This document shows, in pieces, positions 15,843-32,740 of a stretch of 64,000 nucleotides of DNA. The translations under genes were made by a program, and so were the position numbers. Numbering within the stretch: position 1 is the stretch's first letter; the number at the start of each line of letters is the position of its first letter. The notes below the pieces were generated by a model. It was not told the origin of the DNA. It was given only the letters and a program-made list of their open reading frames with translations, and did not search any database. The stretch is from Verrucomicrobiaceae bacterium (GTDB lineage: Bacteria; Pseudomonadota; Gammaproteobacteria; Pseudomonadales; CAMLJR01), in contig JAQGNY010000010.1 in assembly GCA_028293825.1 (NCBI GenBank), positions 384,008 to 448,007 on the forward strand, read 5' to 3'.

Positions 15843-16320
15843 TTGTTGAGCCTTATTATTTTGGTGATTCGAGGAGGCACTTGCCTCTGTTTATGGTGTG
15901 CGAGGTGCGGCGCCCGCGTGGCAGAGCTGCAAGATCGTCTTTAAACACCGTATCGAACAGATCGATATTGTCGACACCAACGACGCGGACCGTGAATATC
16001 AGGCGCGCGGATGGGCGTCGAACAACCGCTGCCCATTGTAGAAGATGTCGATCAGCCCCGGGGCAAGGGCGAAGAGTTTGGTGATTCGGCACATTTAAAA
16101 ACTCCACTAAGTCAGGTAGCGCGGCATCCGCTGCAGAACAATTACTTTCCGCAGAACATCTGTTGCCATGTCGGCGAGCCTGATGAGAAATTCCATATAT
16201 CCCGTTGCTGTTCACCATTTTGTTGCCGGGAATCGGCTCAGGAATTTCGGCCGCCCAGATCCATCGACACTTAACTGATCTCAATCAGCCTGCATAACAC
16301 CAAATGCGCGGCCTTCGGGT

Positions 16321-19004: not shown

Positions 19005-20698
19005 GAGTTCTGCACTTTGTCTGTGGTCACGGGTTCTATCGTCACGGGGGTCACGGGCGATGCGGTGGAACTAGAGGCGGCGGCTTGGCGCAGCTGGCGG
19101 TGATAGCGAACATAGTGAATGCCGAACCAGATCAACGTCAGCGCGGCGAGTCCGCCGATCAGCAGGAAGGTGTCGTTGAAGGCGAGCACGTTGGCCTCGC
19201 GCGTGACCTGCTGCGCAAACAGCGCGCTGCCCTGCGCCTGACGCAGCGTCGGATCGCCGATCACTTTGCCGTAGGCGCCGGCGCTACTTTGCAGTCGCGC
19301 GGCGAAGGTCGGATTGGCCAGCGTCAGTGCGCTGACCAGTTCGTGCGACCAGTATTTTTCGCGCACCACCTGAAAGGTGCCGAGCAGTGCGCTGCCGAGC
19401 AAACCGCCGATGTTCTGGCAAATCCCGAACAGCGCGGAGAAGCTGACTACATAAGCCGGTCCCTGCGCCAGTGCACGGGTGAGGCCGATCAGCAATGCGG
19501 GGCCGAGGAAAAATACCGCAGCGAAGGCGAGCAGCGATTGGCTGATCAACATCTGCGCCGGCCGGGTCAGGTTATTCGAATGCGCGTCGAGCCAGGCGCC
19601 GATCATGATAAGGAAGATCGATACCAGAATCGGCCAGCCGAGATTGCTCGGGCTCAGCGTCAGCGCGCTCAGCAGCACGCCGAGAAACGTCACCAGCGAA
19701 ATCACCCAGAACAGGTCGATCATCTGATCATTGTTCAGCCCCAGCGCCTGCAGCAGACCGACCGAGCCGAACGTTTGTTCGGATAACAGCACGCGCATCG
19801 CCACCGCAACAATAGCAATGCGGATAATCGTCACGCTGCCGATCCAGCGCGTATTCAGCAGCGGATTCTTGCGGTGATGTTCGATCCACAGTGCCAGTGT
19901 CAGCATGACGATCGCACCGCACAGCGCGTAGCCGAGCCAGGCGGCCTCGGTCCACCACAGAATGCGGCCCTGGCCGAGCACCGCACTGAGCAGACCGACC
20001 CCGCCGACAAATAAAATAAAGGTCAGAAAGTCGAGTTTTTCGAACACCTTAATGCGCTCGCTCGGCGGCAGGCGCAGCAGCGTCACTCCCGCCAGCGATA
20101 GCATCGCCATGCCGAGCTCAAACATATACAGCGTGCGCCATTGGCCGAACTCGAGCAGGTCGGACGAAAAAATCCGCGCCAGTGGCGTCGCCAATTGCGG
20201 AATGCCAAGACCCAGCACCAGTCCTTTCAAACGCCACTTCGGCGGCATCGACTGCATCGAATACAGCAGGCCGAGCGTGCTCATCGCGCTGGCGGCGACG
20301 CCGCTGATCGCGCGCAACAGCAGTGCGCTGGCGAAGGTGTGCACCAGCAGATGCGCGCCAGTGGCGATGACGTAGAGGACGAGAAAAATACGCGCGAACC
20401 ACAGCAGGCCAAATTGCTGACGGAATTTGATCAGCAGCAGACTCATGCAGGCGTTGGTCATGATGTACGCGGTCGGCAGCCATGCGATTTCGTTGCTGTA
20501 GAGCCCCAGCGAACCCTGGATGTAGGTGAGGTTAACGCTGACCAGCGCGTTGCCGAGGCCGCCGGTGAGACCGACCAAGGCGCCGATCAGCAAATAGGCG
20601 ATACGCCGCCCGAGCGGGTGGTCCGGCGATGCCGGGGAGCCCGGTAGGGTCGGTCTTTCGTGCGGTTTGAATTGATATTCGCCGGTGGCGTTGCTCAT
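19001..20698 (-). CDS. MFS transporter (EmrB-like pump component of the tripartite system)
   Basis: 565 aa polytopic membrane protein. It is the first gene of the MFS-MFP-OMF operon, and the opposite-strand ORFs are GC shadows. Confidence 0.8.
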   Translation of the reverse strand: MSNATGEYQFKPHERPTLPGSPASPDHPLGRRIAYLLIGALVGLTGGLGNALVSVNLTYIQGSLGLYSNEIAWLPTAYIMTNACMSLLLIKFRQQFGLLWFARIFLVLYVIATGAHLLVHTFASALLLRAISGVAASAMSTLGLLYSMQSMPPKWRLKGLVLGLGIPQLATPLARIFSSDLLEFGQWRTLYMFELGMAMLSLAGVTLLRLPPSERIKVFEKLDFLTFILFVGGVGLLSAVLGQGRILWWTEAAWLGYALCGAIVMLTLALWIEHHRKNPLLNTRWIGSVTIIRIAIVAVAMRVLLSEQTFGSVGLLQALGLNNDQMIDLFWVISLVTFLGVLLSALTLSPSNLGWPILVSIFLIMIGAWLDAHSNNLTRPAQMLISQSLLAFAAVFFLGPALLIGLTRALAQGPAYVVSFSALFGICQNIGGLLGSALLGTFQVVREKYWSHELVSALTLANPTFAARLQSSAGAYGKVIGDPTLRQAQGSALFAQQVTREANVLAFNDTFLLIGGLAALTLIWFGIHYVRYHRQLRQAAASSSTASPVTPVTIEPVTTDKVQNS

Positions 20699-21156
20699 CG
20701 CGCAGTTATCTGCCTAAACACAACATTGGGTCTTAACAGCAAGATGGGACCTTAATGAGAGAGCGGAGAGCGAGTTACAGTAATTGACTTACTGCGGTGA
20801 GTCCATCGGCGCTAAGTGCGAAATCAAGCAAGCATCTACTCCGCTCTCCAGATATCAAACCGCTGAGCCCAGAAACAAACCAACGACCGATTTTCCCCGA
20901 TTCGTCCAGTTATGCCACCAATGATCTGACAGACGCGCACGGGTTGCTGATTGCGCACAATTGCCATTGCGCGTTGCATTCCAAATCAATTGTTTTGAAG
21001 CACATATCAATCGAATTTCGCCGAACGCTTTTGCCCCGTCGCTAGACTGGCGCCTGCAAAATCAGAGTGATGCGACAACGCATTCATCCATATGGTGTAA
21101 CGCCGAAAAATTTCGCGATTCGGCGCAGAGCCAATATAAAAATAATGGAGACACCC

Positions 21157-23484
21157 ATGAAGACTGCTTCAATCAATCTAATGTCCGTGGCGGCAATTGC
21201 ATCCACATCGCTTTTCCCCTTTGCTGCCAACGCGCAACAGAAAGAGCCCGAGGCACGCGCACAGCTGGAAGAGGTCTTCGTAACAGTGCGTCGAGAGACT
21301 GAAAACATTCAGTCGGTGCCGGTCTCGATTGTCGCTTTCAGTGCTGCAGCGCTGGAACAAAAAAACATTACGACTGCTGGCGATCTACAAACCGTAACGC
21401 CCGGTGTGTTTCTGGGCGGCAGCGGTATGAAAAACCCCAACGTCGTGTACTCGATTCGCGGTCAATCCAAAGCATTGGCTGGCCCGAGTTCACCGGCAGT
21501 CATTTCCTATTTTGCGGAAGTGCCGGAAATATCGATGGGCAGCACGGGCTCGCAGTACGATCTGGAATCCATCCAGGTATTGAAGGGGCCGCAAGGGACA
21601 TTGTTCGGTAGAAATACCACCGGCGGCGCCGTATTGATCTCACCGAAAGAGCCGACCTACACCTTTGGGGGGGATCTCTCGGTAAGCCTTGGTAATTACA
21701 ACGACCGCGAATTCAAGGGTGGCATCAGCATTCCCTTGATCGACAACAAATTAGCGATCCGCGTTGCCGGCGACGTGCAGAAGCGCGATGGGTTTGTGAA
21801 AGATATCGGCACCGATACCGATATTCAGAACATCAATAGCAAGGGTGGGCGTTTATCGGTGCTGTTCGATCCGGTCGAGGGCGTTTCGAACCTGGCCATT
21901 TTCGATTATTCCGAGGCCCACGAACGCTCCACCGCAACCGAGCTCGCCAACGTGGACCCGACGCCGACGAGCGTTGCCGGCCAGTTGGGATTTGGGCCCG
22001 ACCTGATCCAAAAATTCAAAGAGCAGCAGGCACTCGGTTTTTACAAGGTCAATTACAGCACGCCGCAATTTTCCAACATTCGCCGCACCGGGTTTACCGA
22101 TCGCCTGTCCATCGACCTCTCGGACAACTACGAGCTGATCAATATTTTTGGTTACCGTAAAAACATTCTGAACTACAACACGAATGTCGACGGTGTAGCG
22201 AACCTCGAGTCAACCTTTGTGCCCGGGCTGCCGGTGAAATTGATTTACGCCGAGAACTACGACAGCGCCAAACAGCTATCCGACGAGTTGCAAATTCGCG
22301 GTCGCGCCTTCGAGGAGAAGCTGGAATGGGTGGCCGGGTTGTTCTGGCTGAAGTCCGAGCCGACCGGTCCGGGCGGCACTCTGGTAGCTTTCGGCGAGCC
22401 ATTGGTAAGCTTGCTTACCGGTGCACCGGGCACGGCCGATTACAACTTCACGACGCAAACCAGCCGAGCTGTTTTCTTTAATGGCAAATACGATCTCGAC
22501 GAATGGCTGAGCGGGCTGCAGGCAAACATCGGTGTTCGTTATACCAAAGACAAAACGTCCTCATGCACCGGCGAGGCTCCGAATCCTGGCGACTTTGAGC
22601 TTAGCGACTGCAGTAATGGCAGCGGGCTGACTAACACCGCCACCATTACCACCAGCTCGAATGCAACCACTTGGAACCTTGGCCTGGAATGGCAGATTAA
22701 TCCCGATTTATTCACCTATATCGCAACGCGACACGGCTACCGCACCGGCGGTGCCAATGGCCCAACTCTGACCGGACCGCTCGCGCCGTATCAAACCTTC
22801 GACCCCGACACAGTGACCGATTTAGAGTTAGGCGTTCGCAATAACATGCATCTGGGAGACGCGTTGCTGCGTTCCAATATTTCAGTCTTCAGTGGCTGGT
22901 ATAAAGACGCGCAGATATCCCTCACCGGTTTAACCGCGTTTTTTAATCCGGCTCCCATGGGCGGCACTCTGCTGGTTAATGCAGGCAACACTCGCGTCAT
23001 GGGCGTGGATTTTATGTTTACGCTGGTGCCCACCGACCGTTGGACGATTGATGTGGGCGGTTCACTGCTCAAGCCCGATACGCTTAAAAATGATTTGCCC
23101 GACTTTTTGCGGCAAGAGCAATTCGTCGGTTCGGACCCCTCTCAAATTCCGTTTAACGGCGCCCCGAAGAAGAGCTTTACCAGCAGCGTCCGTTATGAGC
23201 TTCCACTCGCGGGTGATTTAGGCAAACTTGCCTTCGACGTGAATTATTACTTCAACGGGCAAATGGAATACGGCGCACAAACCATAGCGAGTTATGGCCT
23301 GTTAGGTGGCCGGATCGACTGGCGCAATATTGCCAAGAGCGGCGTGGACGTTGGCTTGTTCGGTCAAAACTTGGCGAACAAAGAATACTTCGGCAGCGGC
23401 GCCGCCGCGGGCGGCCTTGGCTTCGAAACATCGATGGTCGCAGCGCCGCGCATGTATGGCGTAGACGTGCGCTATCACTTTTAA
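21157..23484 (+). CDS. TonB-dependent receptor
   Basis: Signal peptide 'MKTASINLMSVAAIASTSLFPFAANA'. Plug motifs are 'LEEVFVTVRRETENIQSVPVSI' and 'IQVLKGPQGTLFGRNTTGGAV'. The beta-barrel ends '...GVDVRYHF'. GGAGA lies 5 nt upstream of ATG 21157. Confidence 0.9.
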   Translation: MKTASINLMSVAAIASTSLFPFAANAQQKEPEARAQLEEVFVTVRRETENIQSVPVSIVAFSAAALEQKNITTAGDLQTVTPGVFLGGSGMKNPNVVYSIRGQSKALAGPSSPAVISYFAEVPEISMGSTGSQYDLESIQVLKGPQGTLFGRNTTGGAVLISPKEPTYTFGGDLSVSLGNYNDREFKGGISIPLIDNKLAIRVAGDVQKRDGFVKDIGTDTDIQNINSKGGRLSVLFDPVEGVSNLAIFDYSEAHERSTATELANVDPTPTSVAGQLGFGPDLIQKFKEQQALGFYKVNYSTPQFSNIRRTGFTDRLSIDLSDNYELINIFGYRKNILNYNTNVDGVANLESTFVPGLPVKLIYAENYDSAKQLSDELQIRGRAFEEKLEWVAGLFWLKSEPTGPGGTLVAFGEPLVSLLTGAPGTADYNFTTQTSRAVFFNGKYDLDEWLSGLQANIGVRYTKDKTSSCTGEAPNPGDFELSDCSNGSGLTNTATITTSSNATTWNLGLEWQINPDLFTYIATRHGYRTGGANGPTLTGPLAPYQTFDPDTVTDLELGVRNNMHLGDALLRSNISVFSGWYKDAQISLTGLTAFFNPAPMGGTLLVNAGNTRVMGVDFMFTLVPTDRWTIDVGGSLLKPDTLKNDLPDFLRQEQFVGSDPSQIPFNGAPKKSFTSSVRYELPLAGDLGKLAFDVNYYFNGQMEYGAQTIASYGLLGGRIDWRNIAKSGVDVGLFGQNLANKEYFGSGAAAGGLGFETSMVAAPRMYGVDVRYHF

Positions 23485-23637
23485 CGGGTCTTTAATCTTT
23501 GGGTGACGTGTCTGAACTGCGGCATATTCGGCAGCGCGCCGGATTTGTCGGGGTTTGGGCGCAACATTCTCAAATATGATTGCTGGGTGGTCCTGCTGAG
23601 TTATCGCAGCAACCATCGATGTTGGAGTGATCTGCAA

Positions 23638-24423
23638 ATGAGCATGTGTCTACTGGGCAAGATTGCTGTAGTGACTGGCGCCGGGCGCGGTATCGGCCGG
23701 GCGATCGCTGAGCAATTCGCCGCCGAAGGAGCCAAGGTTGTCGTCGCCTCCCGCACAGCTGAGACGGTCGACGAGGTGGTGTCGGCCATTCGCAGTGCGG
23801 GTGGCGAGGCAATGGGTGTCCGCTGCGATGTAAGTGTCGTCAGTGATATCAACAGTGCCGTCGATTGCGCTGCCAAAACCTGGGGTGGCATCGACATCAT
23901 GGTCAACAACGCGCAAAGCTTTGGCACTAGAGAGAAGCCATTGTTGAAAACCGCGGACCGCGGCGTCGAAGAAGTTAGCGAAGAGGAGTGGGATTGGATC
24001 TACACCACCGGCCTCAAGGCCACACTGCGCTTCATGCAAGCCGTGTTTCCTCAGATGAAGGCTCGGGGCGGCGGCTCCATCATCAATTTTGGTTCGGCTC
24101 GGGGCATTTTATCCACGCCGATGACCTCTCCCTACAATGCCGCCAAGGAGGCTATCCGCAGCCTCAGCCGAACGGCAGCCAATGAATGGGGCGCTCACAA
24201 CATTCGCGTCAATGTGATTAACCCGGTCATCGATACCGATGCTTATCGGGAAGATATTTCCACTGAAGCGGGTCGCAAGGCCGTCGAAGCCATGATTCCG
24301 CTGCGCCGAGTCGGCACACCGCTGGAGGCCGCGCGGGTCGCGTTGTTTCTTGCAGGATCGGATTCAAGCTACATCACCGGCCAAAGTTTCGACGTTGACG
24401 GCGGGCTTGTGTCGCGCCCTTAG
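23638..24423 (+). CDS. SDR family oxidoreductase
   Basis: 'KIAVVTGAGRGIGRAIA' (TGxxxGxG), 'NNAQ', and 'YNAAKEA' (YxxxK). The start is ATG 23638 with GGAG upstream. Confidence 0.9.
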   Translation: MSMCLLGKIAVVTGAGRGIGRAIAEQFAAEGAKVVVASRTAETVDEVVSAIRSAGGEAMGVRCDVSVVSDINSAVDCAAKTWGGIDIMVNNAQSFGTREKPLLKTADRGVEEVSEEEWDWIYTTGLKATLRFMQAVFPQMKARGGGSIINFGSARGILSTPMTSPYNAAKEAIRSLSRTAANEWGAHNIRVNVINPVIDTDAYREDISTEAGRKAVEAMIPLRRVGTPLEAARVALFLAGSDSSYITGQSFDVDGGLVSRP

Positions 24424-24483
24424 CAGAATCCGACTTCCTTGGCGCACGAGCGCCTTATTCGTTATCCCAAGAAGGTAAAGACC

Positions 24484-25713
24484 ATGGAAAATCCGACATT
24501 GAATATGCCCCCCGCTGTACAAAATGCCTGGCAGGGGTATCTGGATGCGCTTGAATGCATCAGGGAATTTATCTACACCCGTGAGTTTTCCGATCGCCCC
24601 ATGGTGCGTAATCAGGCGACCCAATTCCTGATGCAGATGCAGGCGGCGTCTTACCAGTGGATTATTGCACCCCACGTCGACTATCCGCGTTTCTACCGTT
24701 ATTTATACGAGCCAATGAACTCGAACTGGGGCTTTCCATCGCCCGATTACGGCTATCGGTGGGGCTTCGTCGATGGCGCGCAGACCTATCGTATAAGCGG
24801 CAAGCGCAGCGACTGCGTGTTCCTCGACATCCAGGTCCAGCCGCTGTTCGGGATCGTGGAGGATGCCGAGTTCGTCAAGCTGCCGACGAAATCCTATCTT
24901 ATCGATGACATGCAATTGGAGGCCGATGGCAGTTTCGAGATTATCGCCAGCCCCAATCCCCATCCCGGCAACTGGATCAAGCTCGATCCCGAGCAGCACG
25001 TCATTGCGCTGTTCGTCCGCGAGACATTTTATGACTGGGGCAAGGCGCAGCCTTCCAAGATGTGGATCGACCGGCTCACCGACACGCCGGCGCGCCCGTT
25101 CCTGTCTGATGAGCCGACGCTAGTCGCAAAAATTGAACACGCTGCCCGCTTTGTTAAGTTCGTGGTCCGGGCGTGGGTGACGGCCGGGTTCGATCGGAGT
25201 TTGGCGGCGCAGGACCGTGAGTTCAACCGTTTTGCCATGCAGCATATCCCGGCCAATGCCGGCGGCAATCCGCTCGCCGTTTATCACAACATGATCTTTG
25301 CCTTGCAGGAAAACGAAGCGCTGATCATCGAAGTGGAAGCGCCAACCAGCCGCTACTGGAGCTTCGCCACAGCAAACCGTTACCTCCAGATCGCGGACTT
25401 TGTCTATCACCAGTCCAGTCTGAACGGGCATCAAGCGCGGCGAGACGCGGACGGCAAGTACCGTTTCGTCCTGTGCAAAGACGATATCGGCGCGCCGAAC
25501 TGGCTCGATCCGGTCGATACCGCGGAGCTGGGCATGATGCAGTTTCGCCAGTTTTACCAGGAGCAGGCCGTGGGGCTGCCGAAGGTGACCAGCGTCAAAT
25601 CGTCAGAAGCGTTTGCCGCGCTTCCTGCCGGCACCCCGTTCATTTCACCTGCGCAGCGGCGGACTCAGCTTGATCAGCGCAGTCGCGACGTACTGCAAAT
25701 CTATGGCTACTGA
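24484..25713 (+). CDS. DUF1214-like domain protein (tentative family), cytoplasmic paralog
   Basis: ~409 aa with no signal peptide. The C-terminal block 'NEALIIEVEAPTSRYWSF...DADGKYRFVLCKDDIGAPNWLD...GMMQFRQFY' fits the DUF1214 pattern as I recall it. It is a clear paralog of 62047..63507. Confidence 0.5.
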   Translation: MENPTLNMPPAVQNAWQGYLDALECIREFIYTREFSDRPMVRNQATQFLMQMQAASYQWIIAPHVDYPRFYRYLYEPMNSNWGFPSPDYGYRWGFVDGAQTYRISGKRSDCVFLDIQVQPLFGIVEDAEFVKLPTKSYLIDDMQLEADGSFEIIASPNPHPGNWIKLDPEQHVIALFVRETFYDWGKAQPSKMWIDRLTDTPARPFLSDEPTLVAKIEHAARFVKFVVRAWVTAGFDRSLAAQDREFNRFAMQHIPANAGGNPLAVYHNMIFALQENEALIIEVEAPTSRYWSFATANRYLQIADFVYHQSSLNGHQARRDADGKYRFVLCKDDIGAPNWLDPVDTAELGMMQFRQFYQEQAVGLPKVTSVKSSEAFAALPAGTPFISPAQRRTQLDQRSRDVLQIYGY

Positions 25714-25786
25714 ACGAATATTGAGCCGCCACGCAGCGGTTCTCTAAATTATAAATTTTTGCACGAGCCGAGGAGCTACAACAGGA

Positions 25787-26950
25787 ATGCTTACACAGTC
25801 AGGGTTTTTTGATGGCGCCGCGATTTTTGATCGTGTGGCGCAGGACACGGGTCTGAGCGCCTATGTCGATACGGCAGTTCGCCAACGGTTCATTGGCATC
25901 GTCGAGCAGTTCAACGAATTCGCCAAGCCGCGTCCAGACGCATTGGAAGGATCGCTACGCGATCTGCAGCGCATCGTCGAAATGCGGCTACAGGTCGCGC
26001 GCGACTGGGCCGAATATCCGGAAATCCTGGATGAAGAGATCGTGCAGCCGATGTTTGTCATGGGCTTCCCACGTGGCGGCACAACCTTGTCGCAAAAGCT
26101 ACTGTCGCTGGATTGGGGTCATCGCACCCCGCGCTACATGGACGGATTATTTCCGTCACCGCCGCCTGGCCTCGATCCCGATGCCGATGCCGAAGCGCTT
26201 AGAGCGACTGATATTTACACCCAGCACGTGATCGATCGCGAACCACTGGCACTGGTCTCCCATCCTTACTTCGATAAAGGTGCGATGGCCGAAGCAGAGG
26301 ACGAGTGGGCCGCTTGCCTCGACTTCCGCTTCGTCTATCCACTGCACTTCCAGAATACGCCCAACGTGCCCCCGACCTTGATGCCGGAGGACCCGCTCGC
26401 CCATTTTCAGTTCCAGAAAAAAATGATGCAGCAATTCCAGTGGAAGCGACCCACCCGCCGCTGGGTTGGAAAGGGCGTCCTGCATCACTACATCGCACCA
26501 TCGCTGTTCGAGGTCTTTCCGGACGCGATCGGCGTGTGGTGCCATCGCCCAATAGAGGAGCAGATTGCCTCGATCATTTCGATCAATAACATTTTCTACC
26601 AGCCGATTCGCGGCGCGGGTTGGGAGGAGAATCCAACCCAGATGGTGGAGGCGATGGAAGCCGGCGTGGAGGCGATGATCAACAGTCCCATGATGAACGA
26701 TCCGCGCATCTACCATCTGCGGTTTCGGGAGATGCTCAAGGATCCCGTTGCGGCGATCGCGGCTATTTACGAAGCACAAGGTCTGGAATTCACCTCCTAC
26801 TTTGAGAACCGCATCCGCACTTGGATGGAACATCCGGCCAACAAGGTGGATCGACATGGAAAATTCAGCCATTCCCCCGAGCAATACGGGCTCGACCGCA
26901 AAGAACTCGAGCGCATTTTCAAACCGTACAAGGATAAGTTTGGGCTGTGA
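25787..26950 (+). CDS. sulfotransferase family protein (Sulfotransfer_3-like)
   Basis: 387 aa. It has a 5'-PSB-like loop 'FVMGFPRGGTTLSQKLL' and a 3'-PB-like 'WCHRPIEEQIASIIS'. It is a close paralog of 58632..59789 (shared 'QFQWKxPTRRWVGKGVLH'). Confidence 0.75.
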   Translation: MLTQSGFFDGAAIFDRVAQDTGLSAYVDTAVRQRFIGIVEQFNEFAKPRPDALEGSLRDLQRIVEMRLQVARDWAEYPEILDEEIVQPMFVMGFPRGGTTLSQKLLSLDWGHRTPRYMDGLFPSPPPGLDPDADAEALRATDIYTQHVIDREPLALVSHPYFDKGAMAEAEDEWAACLDFRFVYPLHFQNTPNVPPTLMPEDPLAHFQFQKKMMQQFQWKRPTRRWVGKGVLHHYIAPSLFEVFPDAIGVWCHRPIEEQIASIISINNIFYQPIRGAGWEENPTQMVEAMEAGVEAMINSPMMNDPRIYHLRFREMLKDPVAAIAAIYEAQGLEFTSYFENRIRTWMEHPANKVDRHGKFSHSPEQYGLDRKELERIFKPYKDKFGL

Positions 26951-27122
26951 TTTGCCGGGCCTCTGGTGCCTGGTGATGCTCTGAGCATCGCGGCGCGTCG
27001 ACCGGCGAGCGCTGTCCATCGGACTCACGGCTGCATTCCGATTACGCCGGGAGGGTTAAAAAATCACAGCGGCCGCTGCAATGCGCACGACCGCTATCAG
27101 TGACTGCGAGGGCTGGCCGGAT

Positions 27123-29285
27123 ATGACACGCGAACAGAGTGCGACACCGTCGAAGCATGTGAAGTCTTTCTGCAGATTCTGCGGCGCCAGCTGTGGAACC
27201 GAGATGCAGATCGAGAACAACCGGATTGTTTCCATTCACGGCGACAAGGACCAGGCGATTGGCGAAGGCTATATGTGCTTCAAGGGGTTGCAGGCCGAAG
27301 CGGCACATCACGGTCCACAGCGTCTACTTCGTTCGCTGAAGCGGGGCGCAGACGGCGATCTCGCACCGGTGCCGCTGACGGACGCGCTCGACAAAATTGC
27401 CGTGAAGATCGGCGCCATAATCGATCGCCACGGGCCTCGCTCGGTAGCCGTGCTTGAAGGCGGAGGGTGTTATCTCACGTCGACAGCGCACGCCATGTAT
27501 CGCAGCTTCCTCGCGGCGGTCGGATCGGATCAAATTTTTACAGTCAATACGATCGACCAGTCGGGCCGAATGGTTGCGGTCGAGCGGATGGGTGTATGGC
27601 CCGCAGGATGTCAGCATCTCGATACATCCGATGTAATCCTCATCGTCGGTACAAACCCCCTCGTCGCTCATACGACGCCCGAATTCCTGACGACCAATCC
27701 TACGCGGCGGATCAAACAGGCAAAGGCGCGTGGCACCAAGATAATCTGTATTGACCCGAGACGCTGCGAGACGGCGCGCTACGCCGATCTGCATCTGCAG
27801 CCGTTACCGGGCGCCGATGGGTTGATACTCGGTGGGCTTATTCGCATCGTGCTTGCCGAAGGGTGGCACGACATCGAGTTCTGCCAACGCCATGTCGGAA
27901 CCGAGCGTCTCGACGATCTTGTCTCCGCCGTGCAGCCGTTCACCGAGGCGTTTGTCGCCGAGCGCGCCGGCCTTGCGCCCGGTCAGTTGCGCGCTGCGGC
28001 GGCGATGTTCGCGCGCGACGGCAAACGTGGGTCGGTTTTCACCGGCACTGGCACAGGCATGGGACCGTTCTCGAATCTAGCCCTTCACTTCGCACAAGCG
28101 CTCAACGTCATCTGCGGGCGATTCACCCGCGCGGGTGAGATGGCGGTGATCAGCCCGCAACAATCGGCTTATCCGCTGTATGCCGATGTTTATCCCGCAA
28201 CACGCTCCTGGGATGGCAAGCCGCCCAGCCGAACGAGAGGCGTTCGCCATCTGCTGGGCGAAAGGCTGACCGCGACATTGGCTGACGAAATTCTCGAACC
28301 CGGCCCTGAGAAGATCCGCGTGCTGATCGTCGACGGCGCCAATGCGGCCCAATGTGTTCCCGATCAGTTGCGCATGGTGGCAGCGCTTAAAGACCTTGAT
28401 CTTCTGGTCGTGATCGACCCGACGTTAACCATAACCGGCCAACTTGCCGATTACGTCATCGCGCCGACCATGTATTTCGAGCGGCCGGATTTGCCAATCG
28501 AATATTCGCAGCTCTTTCACAAGACGTTCCTGCAATATACGTCAGCGGTGCTTGATCCCCCGGCGGGATCCGAATTGATTGATGGCGCGCTTTTCTACTG
28601 GCATTTAGCCGCTCGGCTTGACCTTCAGCTCGACTTCAAAGGGGTGGCACTCGATATGTCCACGCCGCCCTCGGTAGACGACCTTATTGCCATCATGATG
28701 CGAAATGCATCGGTGTCGCTCGAAGAGCTCAAACAATATCCTTCCGGCCGGGAATTTAACCTTGCGCATGCCGTGGTGCTGCCGCCACCGGCGGATCAGA
28801 CGAACCGTTTCGACGTAATGCCCGCGGATGTCCAAGTGGAATGTCAAAAACTGCTGGAGCATGAGAAAGTATCGCGCCTTGGCGCGGGGTTTACCCATTT
28901 GCTGTCCAGCCGGCGCATGCGTGACTTCCATAACAGCACCGGCACCCAGATCGGCGCGGTCCTCAAGCGGTCGCCATACAATCCTGCGTTCCTGCACCCG
29001 GACGATTTAACCGACCTTGGTCTGCAGGACGGCGATCACATCAGGATCACATCCGAACATGGCTCAGTCGAAGCCATCGCCGCGCCGGACCCCGACCTGA
29101 GGCGGGGAGTGATGAATCTTTCGCACGGATGGGGAGGGTTGCCCAGCGAAAGCGAGGGTCGCGGCAGTTCGGTCAACCTGCTCACCAACGCCGTTGCACG
29201 GTACGAGTCCGTCAATGCGATGCCGTGGATATCCGCAATGCCCGTACGAGTTGAGCCATGCGGCGCTAAGCTCGCGGCGGTTTAG
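27123..29285 (+). CDS. molybdopterin-dependent oxidoreductase (MopB/DMSO-reductase superfamily), no Tat signal
   Basis: N-terminal Fe-S motif 'CRFCGASCGTEMQIENNRIVSIHGDKDQAIGEGYMCFKG' (C-x2-C-x3-C...C), plus a C-terminal molybdopterin dinucleotide-binding domain. The start is 27123 or 27081. Confidence 0.85.
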   Translation: MTREQSATPSKHVKSFCRFCGASCGTEMQIENNRIVSIHGDKDQAIGEGYMCFKGLQAEAAHHGPQRLLRSLKRGADGDLAPVPLTDALDKIAVKIGAIIDRHGPRSVAVLEGGGCYLTSTAHAMYRSFLAAVGSDQIFTVNTIDQSGRMVAVERMGVWPAGCQHLDTSDVILIVGTNPLVAHTTPEFLTTNPTRRIKQAKARGTKIICIDPRRCETARYADLHLQPLPGADGLILGGLIRIVLAEGWHDIEFCQRHVGTERLDDLVSAVQPFTEAFVAERAGLAPGQLRAAAAMFARDGKRGSVFTGTGTGMGPFSNLALHFAQALNVICGRFTRAGEMAVISPQQSAYPLYADVYPATRSWDGKPPSRTRGVRHLLGERLTATLADEILEPGPEKIRVLIVDGANAAQCVPDQLRMVAALKDLDLLVVIDPTLTITGQLADYVIAPTMYFERPDLPIEYSQLFHKTFLQYTSAVLDPPAGSELIDGALFYWHLAARLDLQLDFKGVALDMSTPPSVDDLIAIMMRNASVSLEELKQYPSGREFNLAHAVVLPPPADQTNRFDVMPADVQVECQKLLEHEKVSRLGAGFTHLLSSRRMRDFHNSTGTQIGAVLKRSPYNPAFLHPDDLTDLGLQDGDHIRITSEHGSVEAIAAPDPDLRRGVMNLSHGWGGLPSESEGRGSSVNLLTNAVARYESVNAMPWISAMPVRVEPCGAKLAAV

Positions 29286-29396
29286 CGCGAAGCGTGGTAG
29301 GCTCCGGCTCCGCCCTGAGCGGCGCCGCAGTTAAACGAAATAGTCAGTCCGACACTTGCCGGCGCTGCGAAGGAAAAATCACCGAAATAACAGGAA

Positions 29397-30785
29397 ATGG
29401 TCATGGGTTCGAATGAAACTGTAAGCAACCGCTACGACGAGGCGGGGTTGGAGCGGATCAAAGCACTGGTGGAAAAAGCCACCGGCGGCAAAATCGTACG
29501 GCTTGAACAGCAGGTGCGTTGGCGTCCGGCCTGGTTCGCCGACGTCGAGATCGACGGACGAATATTACCCGTGCACTTGCGCGGCAACCGCGTTGGCGAC
29601 GTGGCCATCTTCCCCGACCTGAAACGCGAAGCGGATATTATCGACGTGCTCCACGCGGGCGGCGTCCCGGTGCCACGCATCTACGGCTACTGCGCCGACC
29701 CGGAATGCATCGTCATGGACACGCTGCCCGGTACTCGCGATGTGTATGCCGCGACCAATTCGGACGATCAGCGCAAGGAAATCGGCCGCGCGCTGATGAG
29801 TGGGTTGGCTGTCATGCACCGGTTGCCGACTGAACCGTTCGCCGCCATCGGGCTCGACATTCCAGAAACCGCGCAGGATATCGCGCTGGCCGGGCTGCAC
29901 GCCTATATGCCGCTGTACCGTCGCACTAAGAGCAAGCCAGAGCCGTTGCTGGAATTCGTCATCCGCTGGCTGGAACGGAACTATCCCAAGCAGCGCACCC
30001 GCGCTAGTTTCGTCCAATTCGACTGCGGCCAGTTTCTGGTCGAAGACGGCCGCATGACCGGCTTCTACGACTTCGAGTTCGGCCTGATTAGCGATGCGCA
30101 TATGGATCTGGCGACGCTGGCGATGCGCGATAGCGTCGAGCCGATGGGCCGGCCGCTGCCGGAATTGTTCCGCTACTACGAGGAAGCGAGCGGCGAGCCT
30201 GTCGACCACGACATAGTGCAATATTACGTCGCGCAGTTCGCAACGCTGGGCACGATGCAGTTTGCCGGCACGGTCGGCAAACCCAACCCCGGCGACCCGC
30301 ACGCTGTATATCTGTCGTGGGATCTGTCGCTGCGCAAGGTCATTCTGTTCGCGATGTCGAAATTACTGAAAGTGGCTCTGCCCGATGCCGACGCCACGCC
30401 GATCGTACCCACGGCAGGCAAGAGCGGTACCGCCATCGCCGCACTGGTCGACACCATCCGGCAAGTGCACGGCGCTGCCCCGATCGACACCAATACGCTG
30501 GAGCAGGCGCTGGAACTGGCCGAATGGATCGAGAGGGACGACCGCTATGGCGATGAACTGCGCGCCCGGGATCTGGCTGACATCAATGCCTATCTGAAAG
30601 CAGAGTTCGCCAGCATCGACGATGCGCTGCCGGCGCTGGAGCGCCACGTACAGCAGGCTCCTGCCGAAGAAGACCTACCGCTGTTCAAGTTGCTCGCTAC
30701 AGTAGAACGGCGGCGGCATGCGGTATTCGAACCGATCAAGATCGGCTTCCACTTGCGGCATGTCGTTCCCCTCGAAACCCGCTGA
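29397..30785 (+). CDS. phosphotransferase (APH/choline-kinase-like) family protein
   Basis: 462 aa with kinase-like blocks 'IVRLEQQVRWRPAWFADVEIDGR...', 'VQFDCGQFLVEDGRMTGFYDFEFGLISDAHMDLA'. An alternative start is ATG 29403. Confidence 0.7.
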   Translation: MVMGSNETVSNRYDEAGLERIKALVEKATGGKIVRLEQQVRWRPAWFADVEIDGRILPVHLRGNRVGDVAIFPDLKREADIIDVLHAGGVPVPRIYGYCADPECIVMDTLPGTRDVYAATNSDDQRKEIGRALMSGLAVMHRLPTEPFAAIGLDIPETAQDIALAGLHAYMPLYRRTKSKPEPLLEFVIRWLERNYPKQRTRASFVQFDCGQFLVEDGRMTGFYDFEFGLISDAHMDLATLAMRDSVEPMGRPLPELFRYYEEASGEPVDHDIVQYYVAQFATLGTMQFAGTVGKPNPGDPHAVYLSWDLSLRKVILFAMSKLLKVALPDADATPIVPTAGKSGTAIAALVDTIRQVHGAAPIDTNTLEQALELAEWIERDDRYGDELRARDLADINAYLKAEFASIDDALPALERHVQQAPAEEDLPLFKLLATVERRRHAVFEPIKIGFHLRHVVPLETR

Positions 30786-30883
30786 TCGCAGCTGGCCGGG
30801 AGTACCAAAGTACCCCGGCCGTTGCCTTTCCAAAAGCGTCGCTTTTCCAACGTCTTTTCCAAAAATGCACGAGGAGATCATCC

Positions 30884-31231
30884 ATGTCTGAACTATCCAA
30901 ACAAGACATCGAGCAGTTCATCACCAACCAGTACCAATTGTGGAGTGAAAACCGGGTCGACGAGATGATGGCTCTGATCCGCGCCATCGCGCCGAATGGA
31001 TTTACGATTGAATACATCGGTGCGCCCCCGATCGAGGGAGAGAAGGCCATGGCCGAGATGATCGCGAACTACGCAGGTAAGATTCGGACACAGTTAGTCC
31101 GACTGCTGATCAACGGCAATGAGGCCGCCGCGGTAATAGACAATGTCCGCAACGAAAGCGGCGAAGTAAAACCAAGCGTCGAGACTTATGTGTTCGAAAA
31201 CGGCCGGATGCACGCTCGCTACTATCATTGA
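30884..31231 (+). CDS. SnoaL-like / NTF2-fold protein
   Basis: 115 aa. 'IEQFITNQYQLWSENRVDEMMALI...' shows the size and pattern of nuclear transport factor 2 family proteins. GAGGAG lies upstream. Confidence 0.6.
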   Translation: MSELSKQDIEQFITNQYQLWSENRVDEMMALIRAIAPNGFTIEYIGAPPIEGEKAMAEMIANYAGKIRTQLVRLLINGNEAAAVIDNVRNESGEVKPSVETYVFENGRMHARYYH

Positions 31232-31549
31232 GTTTCCATTGCTCAGTAGAAAGCACGGTGGAATCGGTAGTAGCTGTCGAAGCCGCTAGTCGCGGTCATC
31301 TTGACCGGCTCGCGCTGGGAAAGTCTGGACGCCGGTTTATGCTTAAGGTCCTAAGTGGGCCGATTTTGCGGTAATCAATAGACCGCTTCCGTCCCACACA
31401 CACTTTGATTAAGACTTAATAGCCGCGCCGGTGGTTTCGAAAGATGCGTCGCGGGTGAATCTGGACTATCGTCGCGCTTAAATGGGAGTGCGCATTTCCG
31501 CTGTCGATGACAGTGCGCGAAAAAAAACGTTAAAAAGCCAGGAGCTGAA

Positions 31550-32740
31550 ATGATTCATAGCGAAGTCGCGCGGGCGGAAAAGCCGCTCACGGTGCAATCA
31601 GAGCTTGCCGAAGCTGAGGCCTTTACCGGTCTCAAAGATTGGGGAAGCGATCTCGCGTTTCTCGAGGGGCTTAGCATCTTGATCGACGCCATCGAAGATA
31701 TGAAGCCGACCGTGGAATTCCGCACTACGACAAAGGGCCGCATTCAACATGTATTGCGGACGCGTCTGCACCTGCGTGAAGACGAGCGCAATCATCCCGA
31801 AATTACCGCTGCGGACATTAAAAAGGTCCTCGTAGTTACGGGCCTGCCGCGTTCTGGCACCACCGTCACATTCGATCTTCTGGCGCAAGATCCAGCCAAC
31901 CGCTGGCCGCGCGAATGGGAAACTTATGCGCCCTGGCCGGCGCCCGAGCTTGCCACTATCGACACCGATCCACGCATTGACGTCTTGAATAACCTGTTCA
32001 AGCATCTATTGGAAGTGGCGCCGGAATTTGCCACGGTACAACGCTTGGATTGCCGGCAGCCCGGCGAATGCAATCACATCATGATGATGAACTTCGACGG
32101 CACTGATTGGTGGGCCGAAATGGGGGTGCCCAAGCACCTTGCATGGTCCAGTTCACAGCCGTCCGAGGGCATGTATCGCTCGCACAAACGGGTGTTGCAG
32201 CAGTTGCAATGGAAGGGCGGAACCGGGCGCTGGCTGATCAAGGCGCCGCAGCATATGTTCGATCTGCCCGGCCTGATTAAAAGCTATCCCGAAGCGGATA
32301 TCGTTTGGACCCACCGCGACCCGATTTCCACAGTCTCGTCACTGTCCAGCATGGTGTCGATGCTGCAAAAGGCATTCGGAGCGCCGGTCGATTTGAAGCG
32401 TATCGGCGCGGAAATCAGCGACGTCTGGATTACCGGCGTGCTGCGCGGCATGGAGTCACGCGAAGCCAATCCCGACATCGAACGCCGCATAATCGATATC
32501 CCTCATCGCGATGTGATCAAGCAGCCGGCTGCGGTGGTACGCCGCATTTACGACAAGTTCGGCCTGCCGTTCACTGACGATTTGCAGCGTCGTATCGATA
32601 CCTTTATCAATGAAAGCGACAACGCGCAGCGGCTCGGCAAACACAGCCACCACCCAGCGGAATTTGGGATCGACCCGGATCAGGTGCGTGAACGTCTCGC
32701 TCCCTATTACAAACGCTTCGGCGATCTATTGACCTATTGA
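31550..32740 (+). CDS. sulfotransferase family protein
   Basis: 396 aa. It has 'VVTGLPRSGTTVTFDLL' (5'-PSB), 'WTHRDPISTVSSLSS' (3'-PB) and 'LQWKGGTGRWLIKAPQH'. AGGAG lies upstream. Confidence 0.8.
   Translation: MIHSEVARAEKPLTVQSELAEAEAFTGLKDWGSDLAFLEGLSILIDAIEDMKPTVEFRTTTKGRIQHVLRTRLHLREDERNHPEITAADIKKVLVVTGLPRSGTTVTFDLLAQDPANRWPREWETYAPWPAPELATIDTDPRIDVLNNLFKHLLEVAPEFATVQRLDCRQPGECNHIMMMNFDGTDWWAEMGVPKHLAWSSSQPSEGMYRSHKRVLQQLQWKGGTGRWLIKAPQHMFDLPGLIKSYPEADIVWTHRDPISTVSSLSSMVSMLQKAFGAPVDLKRIGAEISDVWITGVLRGMESREANPDIERRIIDIPHRDVIKQPAAVVRRIYDKFGLPFTDDLQRRIDTFINESDNAQRLGKHSHHPAEFGIDPDQVRERLAPYYKRFGDLLTY

Follow-up and report, generated by a model that had tools for sequence, protein, structure and literature searches.

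The question raised by this locus is why a TonB-dependent receptor (TBDR1) should be followed, on the same strand, by genes for two sulfotransferases (STs), a DUF1214-like protein, a molybdenum enzyme, and an APH-family phosphotransferase. In the window (the whole 64-kb stretch of DNA that we analysed), Pfam upheld the gene families that an earlier note had read from positions 21157–32740, save that its SnoaL-like call concerns a 115-aa protein without a Pfam match, which is taken up below; the receptor is followed by seven genes, not by eight as that note had counted (Table 1). The N-termini, read directly, bear out its statement that none of the genes following the receptor in this locus encodes a signal peptide, and these gene products are cytoplasmic. 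Intergenic gaps within the eight-gene locus measure 60–318 nt.

Table 1. Coordinates of the features discussed, as positions in the window
Feature	Position	Strand	Basis or remark
OEP-HlyD-MFS tripartite efflux pump	16321–20698	-	Pfam; divergent from TBDR1; context only
OEP	16321–17739	-	Pfam
HlyD-type adaptor	17736–19004	-	Pfam
MFS	19001–20698	-	Pfam
TBDR1 (TonB-dependent receptor)	21157–23484	+	Pfam Plug and barrel; signal peptide present
SDR (short-chain dehydrogenase/reductase)	23638–24423	+	PF13561, 192 bits
DUF1214-like, cytoplasmic, 6ANS / Rv3531c type	24484–25713	+	PF06742, 32 bits (cut-off 25)
ST1 (sulfotransferase 1; Sulfotransfer_3, mycobacterial Stf type)	25787–26950	+	PF13469, 63 bits
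Mo/W-bisPGD enzyme, cytoplasmic, N-terminal 4Fe-4S motif	27081–29285	+	Three Pfam domains
APH-family phosphotransferase, C-terminal extension of ~200 aa	29397–30785	+	PF01636, 69 bits
115-aa protein, NTF2 / ketosteroid-isomerase-like fold	30884–31231	+	AF2 model, Foldseek
ST2 (sulfotransferase 2)	31550–32740	+	PF13469, 102 bits
TBDR3	49731–52085	+	Paralogue of TBDR1, 58% identity
ST3 (sulfotransferase 3)	58632–59789	+	PF13469, 73 bits
DapB_N/DAP_DH_C-type dehydrogenase genes (two)	59812–60876, 60795–62009	+	Pfam
Distant DUF1214-like paralogue	61963–63507	+	Profile match, 178 bits

The PAPS-type motifs that had been pointed out in both sulfotransferases are real: GxxRxGTT, and HR(D/P)P followed by Ser, are invariant in 16 diverse homologues. 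ST1 matches PDB 2Z6V (E = 5e-29) and 2ZQ5 (E = 9e-18); the mycobacterial stf0–stf3 are listed in PMC3141025. ST2 is 27% identical to ST1 and stands behind a gap of 318 nt, and its closest paralogue, at 51% identity on contig C27, has a DUF1214-like gene as its partner. ST3 is about 45–46% identical to ST1. The 4.3-Mb genome holds 10 sulfotransferase paralogues, one of them at the head of a PAPS-supply operon with APS kinase, ATP sulfurylase, and a DHH/DHHA1 phosphoesterase; this APS kinase gene is the only one in the genome.

The partnership that recurs most strongly is that of the sulfotransferase with the DUF1214-like protein. Within the genome that contains the window, eight of the 10 sulfotransferase genes have a DUF1214-like gene within 3 kb, where 0.18 would be expected (0 of 2000 permutations reach this count), and the adjacent pairs, all same-strand, show seven gaps of 28–126 nt. 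Across 40 relatives, ~41 of 69 DUF1214-like matches have a PF13469 gene within ~2.5 kb (hand count). We also compared 80 DUF1214-like loci spanning Alpha-, Beta-, and Gammaproteobacteria, Myxococcota, Binatia, Acidobacteriota, and Actinomycetota: A sulfotransferase gene is found within 1.5 kb in 49 of them and an SDR gene within the same distance in 31 (6 of 11 in our genome). Co-divergence of the two partners within the genome is modest, with one pair driving the signal (Mantel r = 0.58, P ~ 0.02); ST1 and ST3 are 45% identical, their DUF1214-like partners ~21%.

The conserved unit is the sulfotransferase plus the DUF1214-like protein, with or without the SDR. The TBDR does not belong to it, since the unit also occurs in Gram-positive Actinomycetota, which have no TBDR. 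The core of TBDR, DUF1214-like protein, and sulfotransferase that the earlier note had proposed does not survive this comparison, a TBDR lying within 10 kb in only eight of the 80 loci, and linkage between sulfotransferase and TBDR genes in our genome is weak (4 of 10 vs. 1.3 expected; 82 of 2000 permutations reach it). What had been claimed as a functional unit rather than chance adjacency holds for the sulfotransferase/DUF1214-like pair, whose recurrence is far beyond chance, and hardly for the link to the receptor; similarly, it is this module, and not the eight genes as a block, that is conserved in other genomes. Paralogues of the set are present at 49.7 and 58.6–63.5 kb, as the note had said, but in a looser arrangement than it described: TBDR3 and ST3 are 6.5 kb apart, with an esterase gene, a split TBDR, and a LysR gene between them. 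The order ST, DapB-like, DUF1214-like seen at 58632–63507 is repeated in two of the loci from other genomes (L014 and L015).

A precedent for the triad comes from the cholesterol regulon of mycobacteria. KstR binds the Rv3531c/Rv3532 operator (PMC1995591). In a Mycobacterium genome we found this published operator with one mismatch and, right behind it, genes for a DUF1214-like protein, an SDR, and an orthologue of Stf1 aligning over its full length with PDB 2ZQ5 (804 bits, ~92% identity by hand count). The triad in the window is therefore of the type of the uncharacterised Rv3531c–Rv3529c operon, in which the genes for a DUF1214-like protein (Rv3531c), an SDR (Rv3530c), and a Sulfotransfer_3 protein (Rv3529c, stf1) with the same PAPS motifs as the window sulfotransferases are adjacent on one strand, the likeness being demonstrated in a close relative that has the published operator. 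PMC6429209 gives the status of Rv3529c and Rv3530c on cholesterol as not confirmed or predicted essential, and a requirement for growth on cholesterol is listed for Rv3531c. Relative to the proteins of the operon, those of the window are distant paralogues, not orthologues (ST1 is ~20% identical to the Stf1 orthologue). The gene order in the window (SDR, DUF1214-like, ST) also differs from that of the operon, to which the window adds the TBDR, the Mo enzyme, the APH protein, the NTF2 protein, and a second sulfotransferase. No KstR-like operator was found in the 64-kb window. The genome has a single KshA-like gene, and its annotated regions showed no complete steroid-ring pathway; these findings, and the listing of Rv3529c and Rv3530c, weigh against the catabolic reading proposed below. 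We found no description in the literature of the receptor/ST/DUF1214/kinase combination, in agreement with the earlier statement that no characterised pathway has this composition, although the KstR-regulated operon is a precedent for the core triad.

That the sulfotransferase/DUF1214-like pair occurs in the mycobacterial cholesterol regulon, and in many further bacteria as well, suggests that the degradation of greasy alcohols includes a sulfation step not yet described. We tentatively favour, at slightly less than even chances, a modular utilisation locus in which an imported hydrophobic alcohol would be degraded in the cytoplasm with sulfate and phosphate as leaving groups. TBDR1 would import a hydrophobic hydroxylated compound, perhaps from among the sterols, bile alcohols, or isoprenoids. 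In a first module, of the Rv3531c–Rv3530c–Rv3529c type, the sulfotransferase would put the sulfate of PAPS on a hydroxyl; the DUF1214-like protein, as its obligate partner, would handle the sulfate ester, most likely expelling or displacing sulfate to leave either an alkene or an alcohol that is inverted or shifted; and the SDR would oxidise or reduce a neighbouring position. A known counterpart is the sulfotransferase-thioesterase chain termination of CurM and OLS, where PAPS-dependent activation of a hydroxyl is followed by elimination by the partner enzyme. That system is biosynthetic, lies within a polyketide synthase, and uses a thioesterase, whereas the window has a DUF1214-like partner in what appears to be a catabolic context. 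If our reading is true, it adds a new sulfation step to the breakdown of hydrophobic alcohols.

The mycobacterial Stf enzymes known so far are likewise biosynthetic (Stf0 starts sulfolipid-1, and Stf3 leads to sulfated menaquinone S881). Together with the dedicated PAPS-supply operon and the efflux pump that adjoins the locus, this would suit sulfotransferases that, helped by the DUF1214-like protein, produce an endogenous sulfated lipid or signalling metabolite, the TBDR being a mere neighbour. We regard this as quite unlikely, given the catabolic neighbours in the 80 loci (luciferase-like monooxygenase, 19; enoyl-CoA hydratase, 16; P450, 13; acyl-CoA synthetase, 11; CoA-transferase, 9), among which Zn-ADH is also found, in 19 loci. 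The mycobacterial copy is under the control of a repressor of cholesterol catabolism, nearby regulators are of the TetR, LysR, and AraC types, and ten paralogues in 4.3 Mb, often beside importers, suit a diversity of substrates better than a single product.

For the DUF1214-like protein at 24484, the closest structure is 6ANS, an uncharacterised Burkholderia cenocepacia protein (E = 1.5e-33; 25% identity), and its AF2 model (pLDDT 92.6) has the same fold (TM 0.79–0.88). The DUF1254-DUF1214 proteins VPA0106 and VPA0735, also uncharacterised, match only loosely (TM 0.42–0.46). Since the structural comparison yielded no characterised relative among its matches, a lyase or hydrolase role for this protein is a guess.

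The remaining genes suggest a second module. The 115-aa protein has, according to its AF2 model only (pLDDT 92.2), an NTF2/SnoaL fold, with ketosteroid isomerase, LEH, and SnoaL structures at TM 0.70–0.76 (Foldseek), so that the SnoaL-like call stands as to fold; NCBI names its orthologue in Sphingobium baderi an "NTF2 family protein." In the APH protein, the D(F/V)E motif and catalytic Asp are retained. Most of its homologues carry Arg at beta3, in place of the normal kinase Lys, which counts against a kinase reading. The structures nearest to the Mo enzyme are FdhF and acetylene hydratase (E = 1e-35 to 1e-29), and a T(I/V)DQ motif is conserved at the position of the formate dehydrogenase Cys/Sec ligand. 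Its N-terminus contains no Tat (twin-arginine) motif; position 27123 is a possible alternative to the start at 27081.

APH genes are strongly linked to TBDR genes in our genome (5 of 7 within 3 kb vs. 0.5 expected). A Mo enzyme is near an APH gene in 3 of 8 cases, and Mo-enzyme paralogues adjoin APH, SDR, or NTF2 genes. The subfamily of TBDR1 comprises seven paralogues (44%–59% identity), confined among 40 relatives to this genome, and five of the seven adjoin APH, Mo-enzyme, or sulfotransferase genes. In the second module the APH-like kinase, the NTF2/ketosteroid-isomerase-fold protein, and the cytoplasmic Mo enzyme would perform an ATP version of the chemistry of the first: A hydroxyl would be phosphorylated and then eliminated or isomerised, with a water-dependent hydroxylation or dehydrogenation as the last step. 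The oxygen-independent activation of sterol side chains in Sterolibacterium denitrificans (S25DH, 25-hydroxysteroid kinase, lyase, S26DH) follows a similar logic, in that a kinase turns the alcohol into a leaving group and elimination and Mo-dependent hydroxylation follow; the 25-hydroxysteroid kinase, a phosphotransferase, prepares a steroid alcohol for elimination before the Mo hydroxylase acts (PMC8449060), and in the window an APH-type kinase stands alongside a Mo-bisPGD enzyme. However, S25DH and S26DH are DMSO-reductase-family enzymes of type II, whereas the window enzyme consists of one cytoplasmic subunit and is nearest to FdhF and acetylene hydratase, and the S. denitrificans route has no sulfation step.

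As judged from its sequence, the locus was acquired horizontally. GC content is 55%–60% at the locus and ~48%–52% across most of the remaining window; the host is a marine bacterium. In 12 genomes of the same genus we found no orthologue of the genes shared with Sphingobium baderi (CP013264; locus L003), the best match to ST1 being ≤35%. S. baderi is an alphaproteobacterium, of a class other than that of the host. Its orthologues of the DUF1214-like protein, ST1, APH, and NTF2 genes (82%, 80%, 82%, and 76% protein identity, respectively; ~77% DNA identity) have the same order and strand as in the window and lie downstream of a TBDR. There, an amidase replaces the SDR, ST and APH have no Mo enzyme between them, a second sulfotransferase is missing, and the TBDR is only 30% identical to TBDR1.

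The eight-gene locus is thus a mosaic of recurring modules, not a single conserved unit. This mosaic might even have been joined by chance through transfer and rearrangement, the TBDR, SDR–DUF1214-like–ST, Mo enzyme, APH–NTF2, and ST2 serving separate substrates. Several observations fit such a reading: Only four of the eight genes are common to the nearest relative, with the Mo enzyme breaking into their row; of the 80 DUF1214-like loci, four have APH and none the Mo enzyme; and the gaps flanking the Mo enzyme and ST2 (130–318 nt) permit separate promoters. We nevertheless consider it unlikely, because the same families come together again in unrelated genomes: Mo enzyme, APH, ST, three DUF1214-like genes, DapB-like, and a second Mo enzyme form one string in L014; APH, ST, DapB-like, and DUF1214-like genes are together in L015; and ST, DUF1214-like, SDR, TBDR, and APH genes are together in L057 and L059. 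The DUF1214-like, ST, APH, and NTF2 genes also co-travel between Sphingobium and this genome, and one protein cluster is a fusion of a DUF1214-like domain with a SnoaL/LEH domain.

The efflux pump may be linked to the TBDR1 locus; it falls in a GC-rich block shared with it, and a pump of the same type adjoins an APH/Mo-enzyme island on contig C1 of this genome. Pumps in these two places, and the fact that APH relatives phosphorylate and inactivate antibiotics, would agree with a phase II-like detoxification, in which sulfation and phosphorylation conjugate a hydrophobic toxin (an antibiotic, a phenolic, or a steroid-like compound) for export. This seems to us rather improbable: An importer in the locus, and beside five of the seven APH paralogues, is hard to square with disposal, and the beta-oxidation-type neighbours elsewhere and the cholesterol requirement listed for Rv3531c point to nutrient use, as in the utilisation locus that we favour.

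The distant DUF1214-like paralogue at 61963 is 24%–26% identical to that at 24484 (tblastn). Its homologues in L014 and L015 lack a Tat-like leader; the gene in the window, whose product has an N-terminus reading RRSALHW...ASA, may encode a Tat signal, provided that the first start is used.

Seven genes follow the TonB-dependent receptor gene TBDR1, separated up to the second sulfotransferase gene (ST2) by intergenic gaps of 153, 60, 73, 130-172, 111, 98, and 318 nt; an unrelated OsmC-YcaO fusion gene comes next. The earlier note had counted eight same-strand genes, of which the common strand stands but not the number. Its gene identities agree with Pfam, the exception being a 115-aa open reading frame (ORF) without a Pfam match, for which a SnoaL-like/NTF2 fold comes from an AlphaFold2 (AF2) model and Foldseek. 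The N-termini, read directly, show no signal peptide in any of the seven genes and no twin-arginine leader in the molybdopterin (Mo-bisPGD) oxidoreductase (here, the Mo enzyme), which bears out the cytoplasmic location proposed for these products. A promoter and terminator scan of 20.6-33.4 kb gave fewer matches than shuffled sequences and is therefore uninformative, and the short palindromes 5′ of TBDR1 and 5′ of ST2 are unremarkable.

Features of the sulfotransferase locus and of related genes further along the window (bit scores are for Pfam matches)
Feature	Coordinates	Strand	Evidence
TBDR1	21157-23484	+	Pfam Plug and barrel; N-terminus reads as a signal peptide
Short-chain dehydrogenase/reductase (SDR)	23638-24423 (best start 23638)	+	Pfam
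DUF1214-like gene	24484-25713	+	PF06742, partial match, 32.1 bits (cut-off 25)
ST1	25787-26950	+	PF13469, 63.4 bits (cut-off 27)
Mo-bisPGD enzyme	27081-29285	+	Three domains (4Fe-4S, molybdopterin, dinucleotide-binding): PF04879, 43.8 bits; PF00384, 76.8 bits; PF01568, 57.0 bits
APH-family phosphotransferase	29397-30785	+	PF01636, 68.6 bits (cut-off 23.2)
115-aa ORF	30884-31231	+	No Pfam match; NTF2-like fold from AF2 model
ST2	31550-32740	+	PF13469, 102.4 bits (cut-off 27)
TBDR3	49731-52085	+	
ST3	58632-59789	+	PF13469, 73.0 bits (cut-off 27)
Two DapB_N/DAP_DH_C-type dehydrogenase ORFs	59812-62009	+	Pfam
Distant DUF1214-like gene	61963-63507	+	Paralogue of the gene at 24484

A fourth receptor gene in the window is broken in two, with the Plug encoded at 54606-55514 and the barrel at 55626-56960, and is probably a frameshifted or interrupted pseudogene. 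As called, the two DapB-like ORFs share ~80 nt, which makes a later start of the second probable. The gene order sulfotransferase, DapB-like, DUF1214-like is kept in two unrelated genomes (loci L014 and L015).

The genome that contains the window (4.34 Mb) has 10 sulfotransferase genes and 11 DUF1214-like genes. Eight of the 10 sulfotransferase genes have a same-strand DUF1214-like partner, seven at gaps of 28-126 nt and one at 2.5 kb, against 0.18 pairs expected at random; none of 2000 permutations reached this number. An SDR gene lies within 1.5 kb of six of the 11 DUF1214-like genes (0.8 expected). Among 40 relatives of the same order, a PF13469 match is found within ~2.5 kb of ~41 of 69 DUF1214-like matches (hand count). 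Across the Gammaproteobacteria, with one genome taken per family, the DUF1214-like protein is present in only four of 150 other families, where a sulfotransferase lies near three of the five copies, and the remaining two copies are on contigs without a sulfotransferase match, one of them clearly cut at the contig end.

We also counted gene families by six-frame HMM searches in 80 public DUF1214-like loci, whose hosts include Proteobacteria (Sphingomonadaceae, Hyphomonadaceae, Steroidobacteraceae, Hydrocarboniphaga, Zhongshania, and Halieaceae) as well as Myxococcota, Binatia, Acidobacteriota, Acidimicrobiia, Mycobacterium, Rhodococcus/Prescottella, and Streptomycetaceae. A sulfotransferase gene occurs within 1.5 kb of the DUF1214-like gene in 49 loci (56 when the whole locus is considered) and an SDR gene in 31 (46). 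The corresponding counts are four (eight) for TonB-dependent receptors, one (four) for APH-family genes, and zero (zero) for Mo enzymes. When three further foreign loci (L014-L016) are added to the 80, the two partners are on the same strand in 55 of 60 pairs. Their distance matrices correlate (r = 0.65, 68 pairs), a value confounded by phylogeny, and the co-divergence within the genome of the window (r = 0.58, P ~ 0.02) derives largely from one pair.

The conserved unit is thus a sulfotransferase with a DUF1214-like protein, often joined by an SDR, and not the eight genes. We consider it very probable that the sulfotransferase and the DUF1214-like protein act together. The earlier note had proposed a functional unit of receptor, DUF1214-like protein, and sulfotransferase, recurring at 49.7 kb and 58.6-63.5 kb. 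A unit does exist; however, it has fewer members and a far wider distribution than proposed, and the receptor, which had been placed in the core set, is linked in this genome mainly with the kinase module (APH genes near receptors in five of seven cases). The alternative that the locus consists of independent modules merely located side by side fits the scarcity of kinases and Mo enzymes in the 80 loci, but not the repeated co-occurrence of the same families in unrelated genomes, and we regard it as unlikely.

The sulfotransferases themselves look functional from their sequences, with sulfuryl transfer as the predicted activity. ST1 is of the mycobacterial Stf1/Stf9 type, as shown by its similarity to the Stf structures 2Z6V (E = 4.8e-29) and 2ZQ5 (E = 9e-18). 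Across 16 aligned sequences that are 20-80% identical to it, the 5′-phosphosulfate loop (G93, R96, G98, T99, and T100, ST1 numbering) and the 3′-phosphate motif (H253, R254, and S262) are invariant, as are E171, K229, and H233; the PAPS motifs previously noted in ST1 and ST2 are therefore upheld. APS kinase is clearly encoded only once in the genome (C19:51887-52342, 234.6 bits; the next match scores 21.5 bits), on contig C19 between the tenth sulfotransferase paralogue and an ATP sulfurylase gene. A DHH/DHHA1 phosphoesterase gene follows, of a family that includes pAp phosphatases. The region C19:46500-58500 (L115) thus carries on one strand genes for a PHO4-type permease, PPK2, the sulfotransferase, APS kinase, ATP sulfurylase, and the phosphoesterase, and a LysR gene stands divergently among them. 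This cluster has the look of an operon for supplying and recycling PAPS, associated with this sulfotransferase family, and its gene content indicates that the cell can make PAPS.

The neighbors of the unit were censused by de novo clustering of ORFs in the 80 loci, followed by Pfam searches with cluster representatives. The recurrent families are Zn-dependent dehydrogenases (19), luciferase-like monooxygenases (19), enoyl-CoA hydratases (16), P450s (13), acyl-CoA synthetases (11), Amidohydro_2 proteins (10), and family III CoA-transferases (nine). These are enzymes of the catabolism of lipids and hydrophobic compounds, not of envelope or secondary-metabolite synthesis. A biosynthetic role, in which the locus makes a sulfated metabolite, would be in keeping with the PAPS supply, but it sits poorly with this census and seems improbable.

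A regulatory connection with catabolism comes from mycobacteria. In M. tuberculosis, KstR was shown in 2007 to bind an operator between Rv3531c and Rv3532 (PMC1995591). We searched 300 genomes of the genus Mycobacterium for the published operator and found it, with one mismatch, in a close relative (genome G394, locus L100). Straight after the operator come a full-length DUF1214-like gene (E = 9e-81), an SDR gene, and a sulfotransferase gene. The product of the last covers the 384-residue chain of PDB 2ZQ5, which is Stf1 (Rv3529c), end to end (804 bits, ~92% identity by our own count). The four sulfotransferases of M. tuberculosis are encoded by stf0-stf3 (PMC3141025). The operator and the gene order together indicate that Rv3531c-Rv3530c-Rv3529c is a DUF1214-like/SDR/sulfotransferase triad under KstR, the repressor of cholesterol catabolism, and Rv3531c, its DUF1214-like gene, is listed as required for growth on cholesterol. 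The earlier note knew of no characterized pathway with this composition: the literature we searched likewise holds no link between DUF1214 and sulfotransferases, but the triad itself belongs to an operon of the KstR-regulon type.

The same three families, including an Stf-type sulfotransferase, are adjacent on one strand at 23638-26950 in the window, with gaps of 60 and 73 nt. This cassette is a distant paralogue of the mycobacterial operon. Its genes are not orthologues of the mycobacterial ones: ST1 is only ~20% identical to the Stf1 orthologue. No KstR-type operator was found in the window beyond chance level, the single match being at 1.2 kb.

To our knowledge, the DUF1214 family has solved structures but no known function. 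The protein encoded at 24484-25713 matches PDB 6ANS, an uncharacterized protein of Burkholderia cenocepacia (E = 1.5e-33), and its AF2 model (pLDDT 92.6) shares the 6ANS fold with TM scores of 0.79-0.88. The Vibrio DUF1254-DUF1214 proteins VPA0106 and VPA0735 match it loosely (TM 0.42-0.46). Exported proteins of the VPA0735 type should, we assume, carry an N-terminal export signal; given these TM scores and the lack of a signal peptide, we rejected membership in that group. The distant paralogue at 61963 may carry a Tat signal: translation from its first start would give a well-formed twin-arginine leader (RRSALHW...ASA; region 61963-62240). An internal Met ~90 codons into this gene would give a cytoplasmic protein, as in the L014 and L015 relatives.

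The family comprises 4,133 clusters (50% identity) at E values up to 0.001 and 1,215 at E values up to 1e-30. One cluster representative (P0317, 539 aa) fuses a DUF1214-like region (residues 7-392) to a SnoaL_2/LEH-like domain (413-521), which links two families that are both represented in the window locus. Four unusually long proteins among the best 150 cluster representatives have no sulfotransferase domain; a SnoaL domain lies at the C-terminus of one, and another matches STN weakly. No fusion of sulfotransferase and DUF1214-like protein was seen in 96 loci or in the genome of the window, and three long open frames that seemed fused proved to be overlapping separate frames. Our literature searches found no paper joining DUF1214 with sulfotransferases, none on DUF1214 with DUF1254, and only irrelevant papers for DUF1214 alone.

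The 3′ part of the locus belongs to a second association. The AF2 model of the 115-aa protein (pLDDT 92.2) is an NTF2-like α+β cone, for which Foldseek finds ketosteroid isomerases as the best matches (TM 0.70-0.76), together with LEH-type epoxide hydrolases and SnoaL-like proteins; on this predicted structure, we assign it to the NTF2-like superfamily (ketosteroid isomerase/LEH/SnoaL). Sequence-level searches of the PDB with this protein and with the APH protein matched neither. The APH group (16 homologues) keeps the catalytic Asp in D[AC]xxGQF and the metal-binding D[FV]E motif; the position of the ATP-anchoring β3 Lys, placed by sequence alignment alone in this stretch, is occupied by Arg in most members, the window protein among them, whereas a smaller number have Lys. 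In the Mo-enzyme group, the 4Fe-4S motif CxxCxxxC...C is conserved. Among solved structures, FdhF and acetylene hydratase come closest, though only with E = 1e-35 to 1e-29. In the alignment, the Asp of a conserved T(I/V)DQ(S/A/P) motif stands opposite the Cys of the FdhF Cys-His ligand motif, so that the Cys/Sec metal ligand followed by His that marks the formate dehydrogenase/nitrate reductase subgroup appears to be absent from the window enzyme, whereas a nitrate-reductase-like paralogue on C19 retains the ligand Cys. The subfamily may thus be an Asp-liganded or otherwise unusual Mo-bisPGD clade.

Mo-enzyme paralogues (41-43% identity) and APH paralogues (28-38%) recur together in this genome. 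On contig C1, a cluster contains two SDRs, APH, Y_phosphatase3, Mo enzyme, DapB-like, TetR, and tannase-like genes and receptors, with a KshA-like Rieske oxygenase, an arylamine N-acetyltransferase, and an OEP-HlyD-MFS pump directly upstream. The clusters on two other contigs comprise a receptor, APH, two SDRs, Mo enzyme, and TetR genes (C17), and two SDRs, Mo enzyme, AraC, SnoaL_3, an NTF2 paralogue, a second Mo enzyme, and a receptor (C49). APH genes lie within 3 kb of a receptor gene in five of seven cases (0.5 expected; 0 of 2000 permutations), and Mo-enzyme genes within 3 kb of an APH gene in three of eight (0.12 expected). The association of sulfotransferase genes with receptors within 8 kb is weaker (four of 10 against 1.3 expected; 82 of 2000 permutations). 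The TBDR1 subfamily has seven paralogues (44-59% identity), found among the 40 relatives only in this genome (best elsewhere, 35%), and five of the seven adjoin APH, Mo-enzyme, or sulfotransferase genes.

Similar strings recur in other genomes: L014 carries in one string a Mo enzyme, APH, sulfotransferase, two DUF1214-like genes, a second sulfotransferase, a third DUF1214-like gene, a DapB-like gene, and a second Mo enzyme; L015 has APH, sulfotransferase, DapB-like, DUF1214-like, APH, and SnoaL genes next to P450s; and L016 has SnoaL/LEH, AraC, receptor, DUF1214-like, sulfotransferase, SDR, and DUF1214-like genes. The C1 island (C1:57600-72000; L116, L103) additionally holds luciferase-like monooxygenase and GntR genes, and its Mo enzyme is flanked by a kinase and a phosphatase.

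Tripartite OEP/HlyD/MFS efflux pumps adjoin both the sulfotransferase/kinase locus (16321-20698) and the APH/Mo-enzyme island (C1:53340-57585; L116 13340-17585). Detoxification coupled to the neighboring pump would give this adjacency a role, but the catabolic company of the unit elsewhere points another way, and we think such a function quite unlikely.

We tentatively favor, with somewhat less than even confidence, an importer joined to sulfate and phosphate processing of a hydrophobic hydroxylated compound. The receptor would import the compound, and the SDR would adjust a carbinol or ketone in the cytoplasm; the sulfotransferase would place sulfate on a hydroxyl, and its DUF1214-like partner would process the resulting ester. 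The APH-type kinase and the NTF2-fold protein would carry out the equivalent chemistry with phosphate, and the Mo enzyme a hydroxylation or dehydrogenation independent of oxygen. Such leaving groups have precedents in LvaA/LvaC, ACAD10/11, and the CurM sulfotransferase-thioesterase pair. A further precedent is found in Sterolibacterium, where a phosphotransferase, the 25-hydroxysteroid kinase, acts ahead of a Mo hydroxylase (PMC8449060). We do not claim the steroid nucleus as the substrate, since apart from one KshA-like Rieske gene no ring-degradation genes were found in the annotated flanking regions.

A bolder joint claim is that sulfation is a transient, activating catabolic step both here and in the ~1,200-4,100 DUF1214-like clusters across phyla. 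On this view, the substrate would resemble a sterol or isoprenoid, and the Stf-type sulfotransferase would esterify one of its unreactive alcohols, secondary or tertiary, with sulfate; the cytoplasmic DUF1214-like proteins would then form a new family of enzymes that remove this sulfate by elimination or displacement. We hold this to be rather doubtful as a whole; if true, it would also account for the Rv3531c-Rv3529c operon, an orphan within the mycobacterial cholesterol regulon. The near-obligatory pairing, which spans marine Gammaproteobacteria to that regulon, implies a concrete, testable function for both partners and suggests that sulfate esters are used in degradation, a use that textbooks do not list. 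The non-pathogenic Sphingobium baderi combined with expression in E. coli offers a tractable route to the function of DUF1214 and of the mycobacterial operon. Given the listing of Rv3531c among genes needed on cholesterol, such work could clear up a point in steroid catabolism.

The closest relatives of the window proteins are those of S. baderi (DUF1214-like, 82% identity; ST1, 80%; APH, 82%; NTF2, 76%), and the DNA aligns in two blocks of 76-78% identity; slightly closer copies (85-87%) are on short metagenome contigs. The S. baderi locus has the order receptor, amidase, DUF1214-like, sulfotransferase, APH, NTF2. It differs from the window in having an amidase in place of the SDR, a receptor of only 30% identity, and neither a Mo enzyme nor a second sulfotransferase. 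Twelve genomes of the genus to which the genome of the window belongs contain nothing above 35% identity to ST1, and strong DUF1214-like profile matches in two genomes (G002 and G014) were rejected as orthologues, being paralogues of ~36% identity. The GC content is 55-63% in a block at ~14-32.7 kb and about 48-52% in most of the remaining window, with values of 46-53% over most of the window. Because the Sphingobium relatives are closest, the same-genus genomes hold nothing closer than 35%, and the GC content differs, our conclusion is horizontal acquisition of the locus followed by rearrangement. This gives an example, relevant to marine carbon cycling, of how receptor-rich oligotrophs build importer-plus-enzyme cassettes for hydrophobic substrates through horizontal transfer. 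Besides the whole locus, the GC-rich block (14000-32700) takes in the efflux pump as well as MFS and isochorismatase genes; foreign relatives were found for its 24.5-31.2 kb part only. The host is probably a relative of the Spongiibacteraceae: a Zhongshania locus is syntenic with another contig of the same genome, at 68-74% DNA identity.
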